From the IMG/VR virus record IMGVR_UViG_3300016649_000097, positions 22,585 to 86,584 of that record: DNA of 64,000 bases. One strand, written 5' to 3'. Positions within the stretch are counted from its first letter, which is position 1. The number at the start of each line of letters is the position of its first letter. Shown here piece after piece: positions 2,703 to 19,646 of the stretch. The translations under genes were made by a program, and so were the position numbers. Origin of the DNA: a virus. Its lineage: Duplodnaviria > Caudoviricetes. The notes beneath the pieces were generated by a model, which saw only the letters and a list, made by a program, of their open reading frames with translations, was not told the origin of the DNA and ran no database searches.

Positions 2703-3201
2703 TTACCAACTCCGGTATGGAGTCATTGAATTCGTGTAGAGGTATTCTCCAAGAACCTTCAGGGGCGTATATCCACTCATCTCTCTGCACATCTTCCATT
2801 CGAAGCCATCCATAAACTTCTACCTGTGAGTAGTAGTCGCGGTCGAGTACGCGTGCGCCCACGAGAAGACGACCAGGTGTTATATCTTTTGGAAAGACTG
2901 GAATCTCATCACGGGTTCTAACGCTCTTGACTTCCACATTAGAGCCAACATCTGGAATGTGCTTTCTAAATGGATGTTCTTCATTTGGATAGAACGGAAA
3001 TGTAAGTGGCATCTTATAAAGTTTTGCAACAGCATATTCTGCAACGATAGTGCGAACGTTTGCTGATATCTCTGGTTCTAGTTTTGATTTATTATCGCCT
3101 GCATAGTTTGGTCTATCAACACTGCCCCACTTCATCATCCATCGATTAAGAGCAATGTCTGCACAGGCTCTGACTTCTTCTTTGCTTAGGTTAACAATCA
3201 T
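2695..3201 (-). CDS. Putative PD-(D/E)XK nuclease-like protein
   Basis: AEYAV...PDV..NVEVKS motif. Confidence 0.5.
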   Translation of the reverse strand: MIVNLSKEEVRACADIALNRWMMKWGSVDRPNYAGDNKSKLEPEISANVRTIVAEYAVAKLYKMPLTFPFYPNEEHPFRKHIPDVGSNVEVKSVRTRDEIPVFPKDITPGRLLVGARVLDRDYYSQVEVYGWLRMEDVQRDEWIYAPEGSWRIPLHEFNDSIPELVNV

Positions 3202-3280
3202 GACTTGAGCCTAGCAGATTAAATGGGCAGTTTTTGCGTGCTCATACCCAGGAGCCTCTTATTAAATTGTGTGACGTAGG

Positions 3281-3775
3281 TTACTCGACTTTAATGGTCC
3301 GTGGTCTCTTATGTTCAGGAATTTCTCTTTCGAGTCGTACTGTAAGCACGCCATCCTTCATATTGGCAGATATGACCTTAACATCGTCAGCCAATGCAAA
3401 GTTCTGCTCAAAGTCACGAGCGGCTATGCCCTTATGTACATAATCGGCTGAGTCTGTGTCTTTCTTACCTGTAATAGTAAGTTGGTTCTCTTTGTAAATG
3501 ATATCGATGTCGTCTTTGGTAAACCCAGCAGCAGCAATCTCAATCAGGTAAGTCTCTTCGTCATCTACCTGAATGATGTTATATGGCGGGTATGTGGATT
3601 TACTTGCATTACGCAACTCTTCAAGAAGTTGGAAGTGACGGTCAAACCCGACAGTCCAAGAGTTTAAAAAGGGTGATAGAACCGCAAATGGATTTACAGG
3701 TTTTTCTACAATTTTTCCGTAATCGTAGTCCGGGTATTTGTATTGTTTCTTTTTAGATACTTCATAGGGTGTCAT
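3281..3775 (-). CDS. hsp20: Small heat-shock protein (Hsp20/IbpA family)
   Basis: YPPYNI..YLIEIAAAGF..YVHKGIAARDFEQNFAL..MKDGVLTV alpha-crystallin signature. Confidence 0.95.
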   Translation of the reverse strand: MTPYEVSKKKQYKYPDYDYGKIVEKPVNPFAVLSPFLNSWTVGFDRHFQLLEELRNASKSTYPPYNIIQVDDEETYLIEIAAAGFTKDDIDIIYKENQLTITGKKDTDSADYVHKGIAARDFEQNFALADDVKVISANMKDGVLTVRLEREIPEHKRPRTIKVE

Positions 3776-3831
3776 AATCTCTCCTTAGACGAGACTAGTT
3801 AATGGCTCCCAAATGGCAAGCCGTATATGTA

Positions 3832-3860
3832 ACCCTACAAGATTGTGATTTATTTCACAA
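3832..3860 (-). promoter_or_regulatory. SigA-type promoter for hsp20 overlapped by a perfect CRP-type box
   Basis: Minus strand TTGTGA-17bp-TAGGGT; TGTGA-TTTATT-TCACA at 3844-3859. Confidence 0.6.
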
Positions 3861-3940
3861 AAGTTAGTATGCCTGCTGTTGGAGCCAAGCAAGATAGTTC
3901 AGTATTGCAAAGATTAGAATAAAGATGCCTATCACAATCT

Positions 3941-4492
3941 TCACTTCTTTAACTGACGCTCTATTTGAAACGGCCCAGAAGTATTAACGTCTATCTTCTC
4001 AGCAACAGCCATAGCCTTCTCTGGCTTCACACCAGCATATAAAGCCCCAAGAGCATATGGAGAGCCAGAGCCAACGCCATAGAAGCCAGCATCTGACATA
4101 CAGACAGACATATCATCGCCCACATCAAATAACTGACCATTGACTGCTATTAACAGGTTGAACCTTGACTCACCTGATTTGCCATCTTCTTTGCCCTCGT
4201 TGAAATCAAATCCGTTGTCTTCTAGACATTTACGAAGTGATGGCATCAACTTAGCGATAACGAAGTGATAAGTGTTCTTTCTATCTTTGGCAGTCATGGC
4301 AGGTGGGTTCCATAGATGTTGAGCGATATCGCAAGGAGCAACTTCACCTGAACCTGCAACAAGGTATTCGCCTACCTTGCTAATCTTCTTCATTTCAGGA
4401 TGCTTATATCTGCGCCCACCATCAAGTGTTACTTGATTGTCTGCCATCAACAAGCACGAATCGTCATACTGCACACCGATAATCGTGGTCAT
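3941..4492 (-). CDS. HslV/proteasome-beta-like Ntn threonine protease
   Basis: N-terminal M-T-T-I, ADNQVT, KI..AGSG, GSGSPYALGAL. Confidence 0.85.
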   Translation of the reverse strand: MTTIIGVQYDDSCLLMADNQVTLDGGRRYKHPEMKKISKVGEYLVAGSGEVAPCDIAQHLWNPPAMTAKDRKNTYHFVIAKLMPSLRKCLEDNGFDFNEGKEDGKSGESRFNLLIAVNGQLFDVGDDMSVCMSDAGFYGVGSGSPYALGALYAGVKPEKAMAVAEKIDVNTSGPFQIERQLKK

Positions 4493-7393: not shown

Positions 7394-7531
7394 TTATTTC
7401 TTAGGGGAGGTACGAGGATATGGTTCGACTTTCGCCTTGATTGTTCCATCTTTTCTTAGGCGAACAATCCAACCATCTTTAATCTGGGTCTTATTAAAGC
7501 CTCTGTGGACTTTTAACTTACCTGAACTCAT
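7394..7531 (-). CDS. 45 aa basic protein (MSSGKLKVHRGFN...)
   Basis: Own translation; ATGA overlap with the upstream gene. Confidence 0.65.
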   Translation of the reverse strand: MSSGKLKVHRGFNKTQIKDGWIVRLRKDGTIKAKVEPYPRTSPKK

Positions 7532-7755
7532 TTTTGTCCCCTAACGAGATTGATACACGAATCAATTACTTTAAAGATGGTCTGCTCTACTTCATCAATG
7601 GGTGGAGGTGGAGGATACAGCCCCTCAAGTTCTTGGGCGATTAATACTCGCTCTTCTTGACGAGCCTTAGATAGGCGTTGGCAGTCAAAACAGGCTCCCT
7701 TGAAGGACTTACCCCTGTCGTCATTGGCGAATCTGCAAAACTTGTCGTGCTTCAT
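7528..7755 (-). CDS. Hypothetical protein with CxxC
   Basis: MKHDKFC..CFDCQR; first gene of the leftward run. Confidence 0.55.
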   Translation of the reverse strand: MKHDKFCRFANDDRGKSFKGACFDCQRLSKARQEERVLIAQELEGLYPPPPPIDEVEQTIFKVIDSCINLVRGQK

Positions 7756-7895
7756 AGCCGCGAAGACTAACACATTGGCGGCCTTCGGCTACTGCCTAGC
7801 CCCAAACCCTCCACCTATGTCTTTCACCTGGCTGTTCTTCCGGCGATTCTCGCTTAATGGTGGGGGGGGTTATGTAATTTTTTATTTGATGACAC

Positions 7896-7924
7896 TTACC
7901 ACCTGACTACTAATCAGGTGGTAA
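7896..7924. repeat. Perfect 11-bp inverted repeat
   Basis: TTACCACCTGA-ctactaa-TCAGGTGGTAA. Confidence 0.9.
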
Positions 7925-8165
7925 TTGTTCAACTCATGCTCAATTTATTTATTATTAAATAGTTTGGTGACAACTTTGGTGACAATAACTTTGGCTACTG
8001 TCTATTTAGCAACAAGGTTCGTGCGACCACTACCAAGTCATCAGACCACTTGGCTAGTTGTTATCAGGTAGTTAGCACCGGACTAGTTGTTATCACTTGC
8101 TACTCGCTTCGCGTTGCTATGTGAATCTATACAACTAACTAACTAACAATCTGTTATGTGTAGAT

Positions 8166-8544
8166 AGTTACTATGACTAACTCAGTTATTCTTCTCAGTA
8201 ATAGCCAAGTAACTCACATAGCAATTCCTGGAATTAGCCACCTGAGATAAGTAGTTACTTATTCCGGTCTTCTCTTCAGGTGACGGGTAGTTAGTTAGTA
8301 ACTTGGGATTCCGCCAGAGTAGTTACTTACTTGGATTCTCCTACCGGCTATTGCTATGCGTAGTTACTTATTCGACAGCGTGGCTATGTGATTATCTATC
8401 TATTACTAAAGTGTTTATTTGTATTAGGTATTTCTATTATCTATTTATGTATCTATTACATTCTTTGTATTAGTCATTACTGAAAAGAAAAACTCTTTGG
8501 CGCGATTAGTTATGTGGGGGCGCACGCGTAAGGGCTAAGTAACT
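8166..8544. repeat. Seven AGTWACT boxes plus AT-rich tract (origin-like)
   Basis: Copies at 8166, 8208, 8253, 8297, 8321, 8362, 8538; AT-rich tract ~8398-8492; non-coding, at the strand switch. Confidence 0.7.
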
Positions 8545-8648
8545 ATTCGCAAGGGGGCGTGGTGCTTGGGGCGAGTTAGTTGAACTTTCAACCAAGTCAC
8601 TTGGGGGCTAGGGGCTAGATATGCGTAAAACGCCTATAAACAGGCGTG

Positions 8649-8677
8649 TAGAACTCAGTTGGTCTTTATGGCATAAT
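8649..8677 (+). promoter_or_regulatory. Extended -10 promoter for the rightward block
   Basis: TG-G-CATAAT at 8669-8677; weak -35 TAGAAC 17 bp upstream. Confidence 0.6.
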
Positions 8678-8683
8678 TGGCTC

Positions 8684-9288
8684 AGCGCACGCGCCAAGCG
8701 TGGGTCGGAAAAGAAGCACCAATCCGAGTGATTCCGATTCACTAGTAGGCAGAAGTGAAAAAGGCTAAACGCACTAGCACTAGCGGTGTATCTGTTAATA
8801 GAACTTCGGTTCGCGGTTGATAACCAAAACAGAGTGACGAAATAACTAGAAGCGTTTAATTAAATAGAGGCTAAGAAGAACGCGATTACTGTGTGAGTTC
8901 TACGAGTGAAATAAAAAAATACTTTGTTACTAGTAGTGATGATTCCTATTACTAACGGCTCGTATTAAAAACAAAGAGAGAACTTTGACTCACGCACATT
9001 CGGTGTAACTACCTAACGATTATGAAAATAATTGTGAATAGCGTTTGGCTTAGAAGAGAGTTACGGAAAGTTGTGTAACTCAATTAGTCATTACTCATGG
9101 ATTGCTAATAACAATTAGTGCCGACAGTAACCAATCTGTAATAAGAACAATGAAGGTAATGACTAAACGAGTTATTCATACTTAGTAATTCCGCTATGTG
9201 TTTAAGAACTTTATGTTCTTACTGTGATTGTCATTCATACCGATTCAGCGAATGAGATTGAATGACAATCGCGGTATCTACATAGGAA
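8684..9288 (+). ncRNA. Large (~600 nt) multi-domain structured ncRNA candidate
   Basis: No plus-strand ORF in the track; about 15 helices including GAAC-UUCG-GUUC (8801-8812), GAUUAU-GAAA-AUAAUU (9018-9033), 11 bp 9084-9094/9156-9166, 12 bp 9226-9237/9259-9270, and a crossing (pseudoknot) pair. Confidence 0.75.
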
Positions 9289-9300
9289 AGAGGAAACACA

Positions 9301-9474
9301 ATGGCAAACACATACACAATCGGTGATTTATTCACCTCTACAAAGTCACAAGTGACAGGAATTATCGAAGAGATTATTCCGGTGCGTGATGACCTAGTGA
9401 AAGTTAGGTTGAATGTTGAAGGCGAAACTCGCTGGACTACATGGACACCTGATGTCGAGCCAATAACTGAATAA
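9301..9474 (+). CDS. 57 aa hypothetical protein (MANTYTIGDLF...)
   Basis: Own translation; RBS GAAAGAGG; beta-rich pattern. Confidence 0.7.
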   Translation: MANTYTIGDLFTSTKSQVTGIIEEIIPVRDDLVKVRLNVEGETRWTTWTPDVEPITE

Positions 9475-9510
9475 CAACTAAATACCAATCAACTAATACA
9501 AGGAGAAATA

Positions 9511-9804
9511 ATGAACCCTATGTTTGATTTCAGCGCAAAAGAAATCGGCATGATTCAGATGAGTATTAGCGCAATCGCGCAAACTACTCAGCACGCAATT
9601 AGTGAAGGCGCAACTCCACCTGACGGCTTCATGGAAACTATCGAATCGGTAGTACATAAACTCAACCTTGTTGTTGAGGCGCGTATCGAAAACGATAATC
9701 AGTTCGAGTCAATCGTTGAGGCGAAACTTCAAGATGTTGAAGAGGCACTAATGATTATTAGCCAAGACCCAACGATTGAAACAGAACAAATAATCTACGA
9801 ATAA
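9511..9804 (+). CDS. Hypothetical acidic helical protein
   Basis: 97 aa, AGGAG RBS. Confidence 0.7.
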   Translation: MNPMFDFSAKEIGMIQMSISAIAQTTQHAISEGATPPDGFMETIESVVHKLNLVVEARIENDNQFESIVEAKLQDVEEALMIISQDPTIETEQIIYE

Positions 9805-9958: not shown

Positions 9959-11323
9959 ATGACTACAACGCAATACGGCGTATTACTCGCCTCACAACCT
10001 GCTGATGTAACACTCACACGACAAGTTGTTATCGCAAAGATAGATAACGAGATTGTCTGCTACTCACGCCTTACGAATGGCAAGCAAGGCAAACAGAACG
10101 CATGGGTAAAAGGCGCGTTCAAGTTTGATAGTGGCGAGCCACTAATCGGTGAGCCGGTTTCAATTCCGATAACACAGAATGATGTTGATGATTACAAAGA
10201 GAACGACATTCCAAGAGTTCTCATTCAGAAACTAATTCGTAAGCACTCTTTATCAGACCAATCACTAACTGATGAAGCGATTAGTGTCGCTGATTCAATA
10301 TGGGAAGCGTTTGATAATGACCCTGCTTCACTTGCTAAGTTCTTCGTTGATAATCGCGGTCAAAGAGTTACTAAGGGCTCTGTTGTATCGCACGATTCTG
10401 TTATTCAGATTCGTCACGCAACTTCACAGGTCGCACAATCACTTGTTGATAGTGAAGAGCGTTCTCTGTATCTACCAAGTGTTACTGAGTTCTCTCATTA
10501 CATTCAGCGAAAGTTTGCTGGTGATGTTGATGAATTAACTATGTATCAGTTCGCACTTGCTAACAAGATGAATGTTCTTCTTTACGGAGATGCCGGAACA
10601 GGTAAGACTTCATCTTCCATGTGGATTGCTTCATTACTTGGGCTTCCATACTTTGCGATTCCTTCTAACTCTGCTCTTGATTACACGCAGATTGTTGGCG
10701 GTTATGTTCCAAACGCTAACGGCTCGTTGTCATGGACAGACGGCGCGGTAACTCGCTTAGTTCGTAATGGTGGCGTTCTTCTTATCGGTGAAGTAAATAC
10801 ACTCGCTAAGAATGTTCAGCAGTTCCTAATGCCATTACTTGACTACCGCCGGTCAATTACAGTTATGGAGAATGGCAACGAAGTTATCAAGGCGCACGAC
10901 AACTTGTTAATTATCGCTGACATGAATCCAAACTATCGTGGCACTCAATTACTCAACGAAGCATGGAAAGACCGCTTCGAGATTAAATTGAACTTCGGTT
11001 ATGACCGCGCTATTGAGAAGAAGATTCTCAAATCAGAATCACTACTCGACCTTGCCTATGGCATGAGGTCGCGTTCTCGTGGTGCTGACAATCATTACTC
11101 CGGTGACAACAACACAATCTTTGATACGCCGGTTTCAACTCGTATTCTCAAAACTTTCGAGAAGTTAGCAACGGAATTGTCATTCGATTTCGCTTGTGAA
11201 GTCTTTGCGAATAACTTTGATGAGAACGAGCGACCAGCAGTTAAGTTGTTGCTCGAATCAAATGCTTACAACCTTCAATCAGATTTAGGTTTGATTGAAA
11301 CTACTTCTACAACTTCGGCTTAG
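9959..11323 (+). CDS. MoxR/CbbQ-NirQ-type AAA+ ATPase
   Basis: Walker A GDAGTGKT; DGAVT..VRNGGVLLIGEVN; MNPNYRGTQLLNEAWKDRF; VSTR. Confidence 0.9.
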   Translation: MTTTQYGVLLASQPADVTLTRQVVIAKIDNEIVCYSRLTNGKQGKQNAWVKGAFKFDSGEPLIGEPVSIPITQNDVDDYKENDIPRVLIQKLIRKHSLSDQSLTDEAISVADSIWEAFDNDPASLAKFFVDNRGQRVTKGSVVSHDSVIQIRHATSQVAQSLVDSEERSLYLPSVTEFSHYIQRKFAGDVDELTMYQFALANKMNVLLYGDAGTGKTSSSMWIASLLGLPYFAIPSNSALDYTQIVGGYVPNANGSLSWTDGAVTRLVRNGGVLLIGEVNTLAKNVQQFLMPLLDYRRSITVMENGNEVIKAHDNLLIIADMNPNYRGTQLLNEAWKDRFEIKLNFGYDRAIEKKILKSESLLDLAYGMRSRSRGADNHYSGDNNTIFDTPVSTRILKTFEKLATELSFDFACEVFANNFDENERPAVKLLLESNAYNLQSDLGLIETTSTTSA

Positions 11324-11333
11324 AAAGGTAATC

Positions 11334-13271
11334 ATGTCACTACCGGAACTAACAGAGTTCGCAAAGTTAGCGAATGACATTCTGTTGGAAGAAGAAGAGC
11401 GCAATCGCGCTCGTGTCGAGCGACTAACTCGATACTTCTCTCGCGTTAATTCCGCACTTACATTCCGCGAAATTAAAGTGAAGGTTGAATCTTCTACGAT
11501 TGAAGCACCTGCTTGGTCGGGTGCTTCTGACATAACTCTCAACTCACGACTCATTAACGACTTTAATAATGGCGTTAATGTTGCGAATCTTCGTGGGCTT
11601 AACTTCCACGAGTTGTCGCACATTCTCTATACACCTAGACATGGTTCAGAGATTGTTACTTGGGTTAATGAGAACAAGTATCGCTTGGCGTTTAATGCGT
11701 TGGAAGACCAACGAATCGAAACACTATTCACCGCACGATTCCCTTCCACTACGGATTGGTTCGTTGTAACTGTTCTGACTTACTTTGTTAATGACGAAAA
11801 ACAATTCCAAACTTCTTATCCGTTGCTTCGTGGTCGTAAGTATCTGCCACTAGAAGTTCGTGAGAAGTCGCGTGAGTTGTTTCCATTCCAAGATAAGTTA
11901 GATGAAATCTGTGAAATCGTTGATGAATACAGAACGCTGGTGTATCCACTCGACACAGAGCGTGGCAAAGTTCTTATTGAACGATTCCACAATCTAATTG
12001 GCTCGTTGCCTCAGCATGGTGACGGCGGTAATGGTGACGGCGGTAATGGTGAATCCAAAGACGGAGAATCTTCTACTGTTGATTACAACGACCTAACTGA
12101 TGAACAGAAACAACAGGTAAGGAACGCTAGACCTGCTGACGGCAGTAATGGCGCACCGACTACGACAATCCTTAACTGTCCATTCGGTCATGGTGACAGA
12201 CCAACGGAAGGTATCGAGCCTTCGATACATTCACGACCACAGACACCGAAGAATCAGAAGCGTGATAGCGAACGCGCAAAGCAATTAGATAAAGCGATTC
12301 AAGATGAAGCGCAAACTTCACAATCGCAATCTAAAGATTCGCAATCGCAATCACCTTCTCAACAAGGTGGTAACTCTGCCGGTAACACAGGTTCTCTTAC
12401 TGAGATTCTGAAAACCGCGATAAGTGATGTTATGGATAAGGAAAGTGTCGCTAATGAAATCACCGAGATTATTCGCGTGATGAAAGGGCTACCTTCTCTT
12501 TCTAGTAACAATCTCACAGAGCCCGACCTTGCTTCATACGCAAAAGCAATTCCTGATTCCAAGACACTTTCTACTTCCGTTTCATTCGCTCGTGAATTGG
12601 AACGATTGAAAGCAAAGTTCGACCCTGCTTGGGATAAGTATGAATCGCGTGGCAAACTAAACGCACAACGATTCGTTCGTGGTGATGATTTAGATACTGT
12701 CTTTGATACTTGGAATGAAGGTCGAGAAGACGCTACTGAAATTGAGTGCGTAATCATTCTCGACAAGTCCGGTTCTATGGGCGGTAACAAAGCAACTCAG
12801 GCTTATCGCGCTATGTATGCGATTAAGTATGCGCTCGACAAAATCGGTGCTAACTGTTCTGTTATCACTTTCAATCACGAAGCAGAAGTTCTTTATCGCG
12901 CAAGTGACAAAGCAACTTCATTCATTCGTGATAGTGGTGCTGACGGCGGAACTAACGCCGAATACGCGGTGCGCTACGCAACTAAGTTGCTTGCTGAATC
13001 AGATAAGCCGGTCAAGTTGTTCTTCGCAATAACTGACGGCGAATGGTCTGATAGTGAGGCGTGTGACGGAGAGATTAAGAAACTATCTCGTGCCGGTGTT
13101 CTCACCGCGTTCGCTTACATTCCTGAACACAACGAAGAGGTTGTATTGACTCACGAGAAAGCGCATTACGCAGATGTCGCTTCTGTGATTCGCAATCCAT
13201 TCGATTTAGTTGGTATGGCTCGCACAATCGTTCGTAACGCGATTACTCGCAGAGTTACTTCCAACGCTTAG
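11334..13271 (+). CDS. CobT-like protein: zincin-like HExxH domain plus C-terminal vWA
   Basis: FHELSHILYT, NALEDQRIE; MIDAS LDKSGSM..GGT..TDGE; ATG 11334 after GAAAGG. Confidence 0.85.
   Translation: MSLPELTEFAKLANDILLEEEERNRARVERLTRYFSRVNSALTFREIKVKVESSTIEAPAWSGASDITLNSRLINDFNNGVNVANLRGLNFHELSHILYTPRHGSEIVTWVNENKYRLAFNALEDQRIETLFTARFPSTTDWFVVTVLTYFVNDEKQFQTSYPLLRGRKYLPLEVREKSRELFPFQDKLDEICEIVDEYRTLVYPLDTERGKVLIERFHNLIGSLPQHGDGGNGDGGNGESKDGESSTVDYNDLTDEQKQQVRNARPADGSNGAPTTTILNCPFGHGDRPTEGIEPSIHSRPQTPKNQKRDSERAKQLDKAIQDEAQTSQSQSKDSQSQSPSQQGGNSAGNTGSLTEILKTAISDVMDKESVANEITEIIRVMKGLPSLSSNNLTEPDLASYAKAIPDSKTLSTSVSFARELERLKAKFDPAWDKYESRGKLNAQRFVRGDDLDTVFDTWNEGREDATEIECVIILDKSGSMGGNKATQAYRAMYAIKYALDKIGANCSVITFNHEAEVLYRASDKATSFIRDSGADGGTNAEYAVRYATKLLAESDKPVKLFFAITDGEWSDSEACDGEIKKLSRAGVLTAFAYIPEHNEEVVLTHEKAHYADVASVIRNPFDLVGMARTIVRNAITRRVTSNA
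12016..12052 (+). repeat. 15-bp tandem repeat encoding a GDGGN linker
   Basis: ATGGTGACGGCGGTA x2 plus a partial third copy. Confidence 0.85.
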
Positions 13272-15454: not shown

Positions 15455-15600
15455 TCTAGTGAAGGTCAAGGTTTATGACCTTTGTAGGTTTCTTCATTAT
15501 TCCTACAAACTAATTCAAGACCAAGAGCAACCATGACCTTACAAGGGGCTTCAAGAACTCCTTTCGACCTTGTAAGTGAGTTGTATCTGCCTTCACTAGA
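15455..15600 (+). other. Intergenic multi-stem RNA structure
   Basis: 11-bp closing stem TCTAGTGAAGG/CCTTCACTAGA; inner stems 15481-88/15502-09 (8 bp) and 15538-46/15568-76 (9 bp). Confidence 0.7.
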
Positions 15601-19573: not shown

Positions 19574-19587
19574 CAATAGCAAAAGAG

Positions 19588-19619
19588 AAAGCCCCCTAAT
19601 TTGAGTTAGGGGGTTTTTT
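19588..19619. terminator. Intrinsic terminator (possibly bidirectional)
   Basis: AAA-GCCCCCTAA/TTAGGGGGT-TTTTT. Confidence 0.85.
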
Positions 19620-19646
19620 CTACTATCGTTTATTTAGGAGGGTCAT

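Follow-up and report, generated by a model that had tools for sequence, protein, structure and literature searches.

The 64,000-nt stretch of DNA analysed here, hereafter the window, belongs to an 86.6-kb IMG/VR virus record estimated by CheckV to be 89% complete. It derives from an uncultured phage whose host is probably actinobacterial, since both its WhiB gene and the closest cultured relatives of its ATPase, encoded by Brevibacterium and Gordonia phages (36-40% identity), point in this direction. A 1.5-kb gap without credible ORFs (7774-9300) separates the end of the final leftward gene (7773) from the ATG of the first rightward gene (9301). The leader studied here is the right-hand ~600 nt of this gap (8684-9300), at the head of the rightward operon (Table 1). 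As the original prediction had stated for these ~600 nt, the plus strand of 8684-9288 is free of coding sequence, the longest ORF reaching no more than 36 aa. A protein-coding reading is ruled out by stops in every frame, non-triplet indels and covarying stems.

The rightward block opens with genes for proteins of 57 and 97 aa, in this order, and continues with those for an AAA_5 (CobS/MoxR-like) ATPase and a vWA protein; farther along come WhiB (PF02467, 1.7e-16), an HTH_17 Xis-like protein, a tyrosine integrase and a transglycosylase. This operon (~10 kb) closes with a strong terminator (19584-19621) and contains weaker terminator-like sites, e.g., 15459-15485. Such internal candidates are few and weak (14 versus a shuffled expectation of 9.5 +/- 2.4). 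From this anatomy, we infer that the RNA is co-transcribed with the AAA+ and vWA genes. The near-clade AAA+ protein (9959-11323, ~454 aa) carries an N-terminal extension of ~165 aa. Several distant clades have orthologs of 285-293 aa that lack this extension, and tblastn matches to them begin at residue 155-170.

Two families (A3 and A4) of acidic, beta-rich proteins of 50-62 aa alternate as the gene after the RNA (9301-9471 in the window; 1677-1856 in L012), and a member of one or the other is the first or second ORF after it. In most loci read downstream, the A3- or A4-type protein comes directly after the RNA or after one small ORF; in L023, a 238-aa ORF comes first. Both families share an F-[TF]-S-T-K-S motif, and comparison of their profiles with hhalign (probability 1.7%) did not demonstrate homology. 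The A3 protein was modelled as an all-beta small barrel (pLDDT 81). A Pfam search of the small proteins to E<=10 returned no match, and the Foldseek comparison of their models with the PDB returned only weak small-barrel matches (E>=0.09; NusG KOW, SH3, Tudor and Hfq), which are not evidence of function. In public metagenomes, one of the families forms 163 clusters when grouped at 90% identity; every one is annotated as hypothetical, and among them is UFOVP1033_110 from an uncultured Caudovirales phage.

Transcription likely starts near 8684, just past an extended -10 element as originally predicted; elements of this kind are used with weak -35 boxes. In 11 of 12 near relatives, TATGGCATAAT or a close variant of it precedes the junction motif by 418-681 nt, and the more distant L010 carries TGtTACTAT followed by the same TTGGCTC..GCACGC start. 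Within the near clade, an almost invariant 85-nt block (..TCTTTGTATTAGTCATTACTGAAAAGAAAAACT..GGCGCGATTAGTTATGTGGGGGCGCACGC, 8446-8530) and the palindrome GTTGAACTTTCAAC (8579-8592) are conserved 80-230 nt upstream of the leader promoter, and are likely operator or activator sites of this rightward promoter.

Two other parts of the gap carry repeated or palindromic motifs. The segment 8251-8373, which varies strongly between relatives, contains three copies of GTAGTTACTTAYTC (8251, 8319 and 8360) with related AGTWACT boxes, as well as TAGTTAGTTAGT/ACTAACTAACTA inverted repeats. Beside the first leftward gene, all clades retain a block (7783-8000) with 70-80% identity, whose motifs are of DNA type (GGCTACTGCC at each end, the palindrome CACCTGACTACTAATCAGGTG, tandem TTGGTGACAA, TTAATGGTGGGGGG). 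Since RNAalifold found no consensus fold in 7783-8000 apart from the palindrome, this block looks like a protein-binding control region (leftward promoter and operators, origin or attP).

Table 1. Features of the leader RNA and its immediate surroundings, in window coordinates
Feature	Position	Strand	Support or remarks
Extended -10 promoter element TGgCATAAT	8669..8677	+	conserved among near relatives
Small 5'-end hairpin CACGC/GCGUG	8688..8702	+	most type-A relatives, in shifted register CGCG-ACCAA-CGCG; weak
5' module with small three-way junction	8783..8842	+	invariant in type-A relatives
Conserved single-stranded GCGGUG	8783-8788	+	5' module
Closing stem UCUGUU/AACAGA	8791-8796/8828-8833	+	5' module junction
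UUCG hairpin	8801-8812	+	5' module junction
Hairpin	8815-8825	+	5' module junction
Conserved GUGACGAAA	8834-8842	+	3' end of 5' module
Conserved, apparently unpaired block AAUUAAAUAGAGGCUAAG, consensus AAUUAMAUAGAGRCUAR	8858..8875	+	most aligned clades, weaker in type B
Variable middle region	8901..8987	+	compensatory changes in type-A relatives (CG<->UA, UA<->CG, AU<->UA)
Middle-region helices UACGAG/CUCGUA, UAGUAG/CUAUUA, CAAAG/CUUUG	8901/8964, 8931/8951, 8972/8987	+	
P1 hairpin, GAAA (GNRA) tetraloop	9016..9035	+	8 pairs, 5 with double changes; 91.7% paired in 27 homologs
Candidate 3-bp hairpin AGC/GCU in conserved AAUAGC..GGCUUAG	9040..9050	+	85-96% paired; tentative
5' domain of the core: long irregular stem capped by three-way junction	9058..9191	+	covariation
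S4	9058-64/9185-91	+	5 of 7 pairs with double changes
S3	9068-71/9180-83	+	4 of 4 pairs with double changes
S2	9076-81/9169-74	+	only near clade, invariable
Junction plus Pa (covariance model R1)	9086..9164	+	most conserved unit; 87.7 bits in window
Pa	9088-95/9155-62	+	6 of 8 pairs with double changes
Internal loop CAUGGA/GAA	between Pa and the three-way junction part	+	conserved bases
Pb, 4 bp	9101-04/9148-51	+	junction stem
Pc hairpin	9105-09/9114-18	+	variable; ~30-45-nt insertions in L019, L021, L022
Pd hairpin	9125-27/9136-38	+	8-nt loop UAACCAAU nearly invariant
3' domain of the core: helix T1 closing hairpin T2	9194..9285	+	covariation
T1	9194-9200/9279-9285	+	nearly invariant; outer pair U-A 17, C-G 5, other 5
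Optional small hairpin AAGAAC-UUUAU-GUUCUU between T1 and T2	9204-9220	+	only window, L007/L008, L009, L109
T2, 15 bp	9222-9236/9260-9274	+	12 of 15 pairs with double changes; 99.8% paired
Conserved apical loop CAGCGA	9246-9251	+	carried by T2
Shine-Dalgarno region GGAAAGAGG; GAGG 9290-9293, ATG 9301	9285..9303	+	sequence and ORF list
First gene, 57-aa protein of family A3, no known domain	9301..9474	+	ORF list
AAA+ (AAA_5, CobS/MoxR-like) and vWA genes	9959..13271	+	Pfam AAA_5 1.5e-25, VWA 1.8e-08

A conserved plus-strand fold next to the Shine-Dalgarno sequence

Compared with shuffled sequences, 8684-9288 folds better than its controls (z -4.5, 20 shuffles), and it does so on both strands, with -172.8 kcal/mol for the plus strand versus -143 kcal/mol for the minus strand. 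Only the 3' ~270 nt (9012-9290) account for this thermodynamic signal: their MFE is -84.7 versus -53.1 +/- 4.1 for controls (z -7.7) and none of 200 dinucleotide shuffles is as good, whereas 8684-8980 stands at chance level (z -0.63, 52 of 200 shuffles equally good). In place of the ~15 helices in nested domains over 600 nt initially described, the robustly conserved fold is a ~270-nt 3' core only (9016-9284).

Homologs were collected through an AAA+ protein search that yielded 23 related viral contigs, to which further viral and metagenome contigs were added by means of DNA patterns drawn from the most conserved stretch. Covariation was evaluated for a 66-pair model in 27 distinct homologs aligned by MAFFT without structure information. 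Standard pairs occupy 94.8% of the cells, versus 30-45% when partners are slid by 1-3 columns, and the covariation score is 0.475 for the model versus 0.05-0.10 for slid partners. Compensatory double changes occur at 41 of the 66 pairs, and none of 500 column shuffles attained the observed covariation values. The check on homologs called for at the outset thus places compensatory changes far above both the slid and the shuffled controls. When 32 distinct sequences were aligned to the covariance model R1, the junction was 94.9% paired with double changes at 16 of 19 pairs; this alignment is fitted to the model and hence leans towards it, whereas the MAFFT result is free of such bias. G-U or U-G wobbles (179 cells) outnumber A-C or C-A combinations (27 cells), which identifies the plus strand as the folded one. 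The outcome is a conserved, aptamer-like fold with covariation support, of the kind expected of a riboswitch or cis-regulatory leader, and the conserved promoter, the Shine-Dalgarno sequence and ATG 1-16 nt downstream and the plus-strand wobble bias place it in the predicted 5' UTR on the same strand.

The core consists of the P1 hairpin, a 5' domain and a 3' domain (Table 1), and several of its helices had been foreseen in the original prediction. The GAAA tetraloop hairpin is kept with compensatory changes at 9016-9035, the 11-bp stem drawn at 9084/9156 persists as Pa, also with compensatory changes, and the 12-bp hairpin at 9226/9259 became the 15-bp T2, in which up to six pair types occur at a single position and 12 pairs show double changes. 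Conversely, the local hairpin GAGUUAC/GUAACUC (9058/9075) had to be abandoned: 9058-9064 pairs instead at long range with 9185-9191 (S4), and 9072-9086 is missing in 15 of the 27 homologs. The long-range stem of the 5' domain is also recovered by single-sequence MFE folding. Invariant unpaired bases concentrate in the junction strands and the internal loop, a clustering that likens the core to ligand- or protein-binding RNAs. The covariation support of T1 is one pair only, its outer pair. For the candidate AGC/GCU hairpin, one pair varies (CG/UG/AU).

Additional helices and pseudoknots sought among the unpaired columns of the 27-sequence alignment amounted to two 3-bp candidates only, both rejected. 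UGG 9098-9100 with CCA 9131-9133 shows no covariation and is broken by C-A in 4 of the 27 homologs (L014-L016 and L020) and in L010; UGC 9119-9121 with GCG 9248-9250 shows no covariation either. Also rejected was the long-range pairing GGCUAAACGC/GCGUUUGGCU (8762/9043) suggested by single-sequence MFE, which is lost in L004 and L009.

The core fold ends 16 nt ahead of the start codon, and the 3' arm of T1, which ends at 9285, abuts the Shine-Dalgarno sequence. In distant clades (L010, L012-L017, L020, L023, L024, L063, L102 and L107), the bases of this 3' arm (..UACAUA) are reused as the 5' arm of another hairpin, GAAUACAU/AUGUAUUC, which covaries in turn (ACGU/ACGU in L010, GACUACAU/AUGUAGUU in L023). 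T1 and this alternative hairpin are mutually exclusive. The alternative hairpin is short and AU-rich, and is absent from the clade of the window. A search for a U-tailed terminator after the RNA found none, and a search for an anti-Shine-Dalgarno segment in the window phage returned nothing convincing. In the optional hairpin at 9204-9220, UUUAUGU could pair with the ACAUAGG located at the 3' arm of T1 and the Shine-Dalgarno sequence.

The variable 5' part and the distribution of the RNA

The 5' 330 nt of the leader (8684-9015) is a mosaic of modules with large indels and carries no thermodynamic signal. Near relatives split into two module types (A and B) separated by large indels. The predicted UUCG hairpin (8801-8812) and UCUGUU/AACAGA stem stood up well, since relatives rebuild the stems of this 5' module by compensatory replacements (GGUC..GACC, GAAC..GUUC and UCAGU/ACUGA in type B; CUGAU/AUCAG and UCGAAU/AUUCGA in the L017/L021 clades), and nhmmer finds the module in six further loci. 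Other elements of the initial description fared less well. A hairpin corresponding to CACGC/GCGUG is present in most type-A relatives, but its register shifts and its support is weak, and both the AAACGC/GCGUUU stem and the long-range helix GUGUGAGU/ACUCACGC (8891/8988) are weak or lineage-specific. The UACGAG/CUCGUA helix of the middle region is kept with compensatory changes, but the pseudoknot formed by its crossing with CUUUGU/ACAAAG is not: the CUUUGU arm (8922) is deleted in most relatives, which keep the local CAAAG/CUUUG pairing (8972/8987) instead. The entire middle region (8901-8987) is swapped for other sequence in L004, L008 and type B. The proposed internal domain duplication also dissolves, the second AGGCUAA reading GUGACUAAG or GAGACUAGA in relatives.

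Several elements of the 5' part nevertheless recur across clades, namely the start-proximal sequence, GCGGUG, GUGACGRAA and the AAUUAMAUAGAGRCUAR block, together with a small three-way junction or a hairpin in which different sequences re-form the stems. No pairing partner was found for the AAUUAMAUAGAGRCUAR block.

In the near clade, identity over the entire non-coding region amounts to 70-86%, and in distant clades BLAST recognises only the core (about 9014-9290). The R1 model detects a single copy in the 86.6-kb genome and one copy per related locus having enough upstream sequence. Out of sample, it matches the L010/L011/L025 clade at 50.8 bits, where the AAA+ protein is only 49% identical, and L010 displays the full architecture with additional compensatory changes; R1 also matches L138, a contig fetched via the small protein rather than via the RNA. 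In a GC-rich clade (L119, L125 and L130), P1/S4/S3 and T1/T2 are missing or replaced, and the AAUUAMAUAGAGRCUAR block sits directly 5' of the junction stem, as seen in L119. Since this clade does without the other helices, the minimal conserved set looks like the junction, probably with the 5' blocks. Wherever downstream sequence was read, the RNA precedes one or two small ORFs followed by the AAA+/vWA pair. Most of the 29 loci read have the AAA+ gene at a distance of 0.7-1.9 kb downstream from the RNA; in loci whose contig ends early, this gene is out of reach.

When the genomes of 185,579 bacterial and archaeal species were scanned for an exact pattern, no match and hence no prophage or host copy was found, and blastn of 7700-9400 against GenBank phages gave none either. 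Look-ups by sequence and by genomic place likewise revealed nothing resembling the RNA in other genomes. Two cultured actinophages, Cantare and GMA6, also gave no match to R1, which was run on them with its filters off. Both carry the homologous AAA+/vWA operon as well as a large non-coding gap at the divergent junction, in which an analogous but unrelated leader is possible. Upstream of the operon, this gap measures 0.7-1.05 kb (2991-4046 in Gordonia phage GMA6, L122; 1324-1986 in Brevibacterium phage Cantare, L121).

Scans with Rfam 15 returned noise only, whether applied to the 64-kb window at gathering thresholds, to 7400-9600 at E<=10 or to ten homologous loci at E<=5; the families without match include GOLLD, ROOL, OLE, raiA, riboswitches, ribozymes and Y RNAs. 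A tRNA/tmRNA scan found none. A divergent GOLLD or ROOL, one of the identities first put forward, is contradicted by their covariance models, which give no match even at E<=10. The other, a new class, is a fair description because no Rfam 15 family matches, and we regard the RNA as a new structured RNA family. Its predicted place at the head of the AAA+/vWA operon is supported, inasmuch as a conserved base-paired plus-strand RNA is found there.

Possible roles and comparison with known systems

With moderate confidence, we propose that the RNA is a cis-acting regulatory mRNA leader whose junction would bind a putative factor. Transcription would begin near 8684 from the host-type extended -10 promoter, and the 3' core (9016-9284) would fold during synthesis into the GAAA hairpin, the junction-capped long stem and the CAGCGA-loop hairpin. 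The ligand of the junction pocket could then be a small molecule or a protein, the small product of the gene just downstream being one possibility, and occupancy of the pocket would be relayed to helix T1, the 3' arm of which abuts the Shine-Dalgarno sequence in the window phage and overlaps the covarying alternative hairpin in distant clades. The outcome would set the expression level of the operon, i.e., of the small protein, AAA+/vWA, WhiB and Xis/Int. We favor a regulatory leader because mutually exclusive conserved helices at the 3' end typify such leaders. The conserved promoter, the core ending at the Shine-Dalgarno sequence, the single copy per genome and the constant gene order speak for it as well. 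Against it, neither a canonical terminator nor an anti-Shine-Dalgarno segment was found, the alternative hairpin is absent from the clade of the window, the downstream genes hint at no metabolite, and a core of 270 nt extended by another 330 nt is more than a simple switch would usually comprise.

The size and the multi-domain build would fit a stable ncRNA with a trans-acting or structural role, released by processing of the mRNA or by termination ahead of it, an alternative that we consider less likely. As a decoy, a scaffold or an RNP partner (e.g., of the adjacent small protein or the AAA+/vWA pair), such an RNA would target machinery of the host or the phage. Its production from the first promoter of the sole long plus-strand block, its constant linkage to a small protein without known relatives, its strictly conserved loops (UAACCAAU and CAGCGA) and the partnerless single-stranded AAUUAMAUAGAGRCUAR would all suit this function. 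Nevertheless, no terminator or 3' end of its own is visible, the 5' third is poorly conserved and devoid of thermodynamic structure, and no Rfam large-RNA family matches. Moreover, the fold continues straight into the Shine-Dalgarno sequence, which argues against a free-standing giant RNA gene and for an mRNA leader.

Processive antitermination of the put type, by which the nascent fold would bind RNA polymerase and carry it past the internal terminators of the 10-kb operon, is unlikely. HK022 put consists of two short stem-loops of ~70 nt, unlike the fold of the phage RNA, the internal terminators to be overcome are few, weak and barely above the shuffled expectation, and the two-state 3' end would be left unexplained. 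These objections are set against a location in cis and close to the promoter, heading a long operon that has a strong end terminator and weaker terminator-like sites, and against a copy number of one per genome that equals the one long plus-strand operon. We find it improbable that the leader is a passive stabiliser, i.e., a 5' structure shielding the early mRNA from 5'-end-dependent decay (RNase J/E) with no specific factor involved. A hairpin at the 5' end, a heavily paired leader and the inferred actinobacterial host (WhiB, closest cultured relatives) would be compatible with such protection, but the stable part is the 3' end of the leader rather than its 5' end, and invariant junction and loop bases, needless for this purpose, are kept across clades whose AAA+ proteins are only 49% identical. 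Finally, a DNA-level element (an origin or single-stranded DNA hairpins) or a chance structure is very improbable: the leader adjoins a repeat-rich divergent control region, but its wobble pairs are strand-asymmetric, a promoter lies upstream and a Shine-Dalgarno sequence downstream, and covariation goes far beyond controls.

Beyond a cis-acting regulatory leader in the general sense, two more specific roles can be entertained, which we hold jointly to be doubtful. The RNA might be the fourth component of a conserved module comprising the RNA, a 50-60-aa beta-rich protein, the AAA+ ATPase and the vWA protein, in which it would serve as an RNP partner, an ATPase substrate or an early decoy against a host system. 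Alternatively, it might be a riboswitch for a host signal, gating the WhiB/Xis/Int operon, and would in this case feed into the lysis-lysogeny choice.

The RNA sits at the first promoter of an operon that combines a poorly understood AAA+/vWA pair with WhiB, Xis and Int, and knowing the signal or the partner of this RNA would bear on the timing of early phage expression. Clean covariation and a compact invariant three-way-junction core are the signature that led to new riboswitches and RNPs. The present RNA adds a well-supported family from abundant uncultured phages of about 90-100 kb, and the 163 metagenome clusters of its partner small protein show how common such phages are.

Three groups of known systems invite comparison. 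First, GOLLD (RF01998) and ROOL (RF03087) resemble the phage RNA in being several hundred nt long, multi-domain and found in environmental phage DNA. However, the conserved fold of the phage RNA spans only ~270 nt and matches neither covariance model, and the RNA appears to be an mRNA leader abutting the Shine-Dalgarno sequence rather than a free-standing gene. Second, HK022 put and lambda nut are likewise cis elements located just past an early promoter of a temperate-type phage, ahead of a long operon with a very small first gene. The put and nut elements measure only 15-70 nt and are found on both arms, one per early operon, whereas the phage RNA is far larger, occurs singly and differs in architecture by inspection; its neighbouring proteins are acidic and beta-rich, in contrast to the arginine-rich N-like peptides. 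Finally, riboswitches and protein-binding leaders (cobalamin, lysine, T-box and ribosomal-protein leaders) differ from the phage RNA, which matches no Rfam 15 family, has a long variable 5' extension and shows neither a canonical terminator nor an anti-Shine-Dalgarno segment. Nevertheless, like them, the phage RNA lies downstream of a promoter and ahead of the first start codon, has covarying stems and a junction of several helices whose unpaired bases are invariant, and carries its closing helix beside the Shine-Dalgarno sequence, a helix with which an alternative hairpin competes in distant clades.
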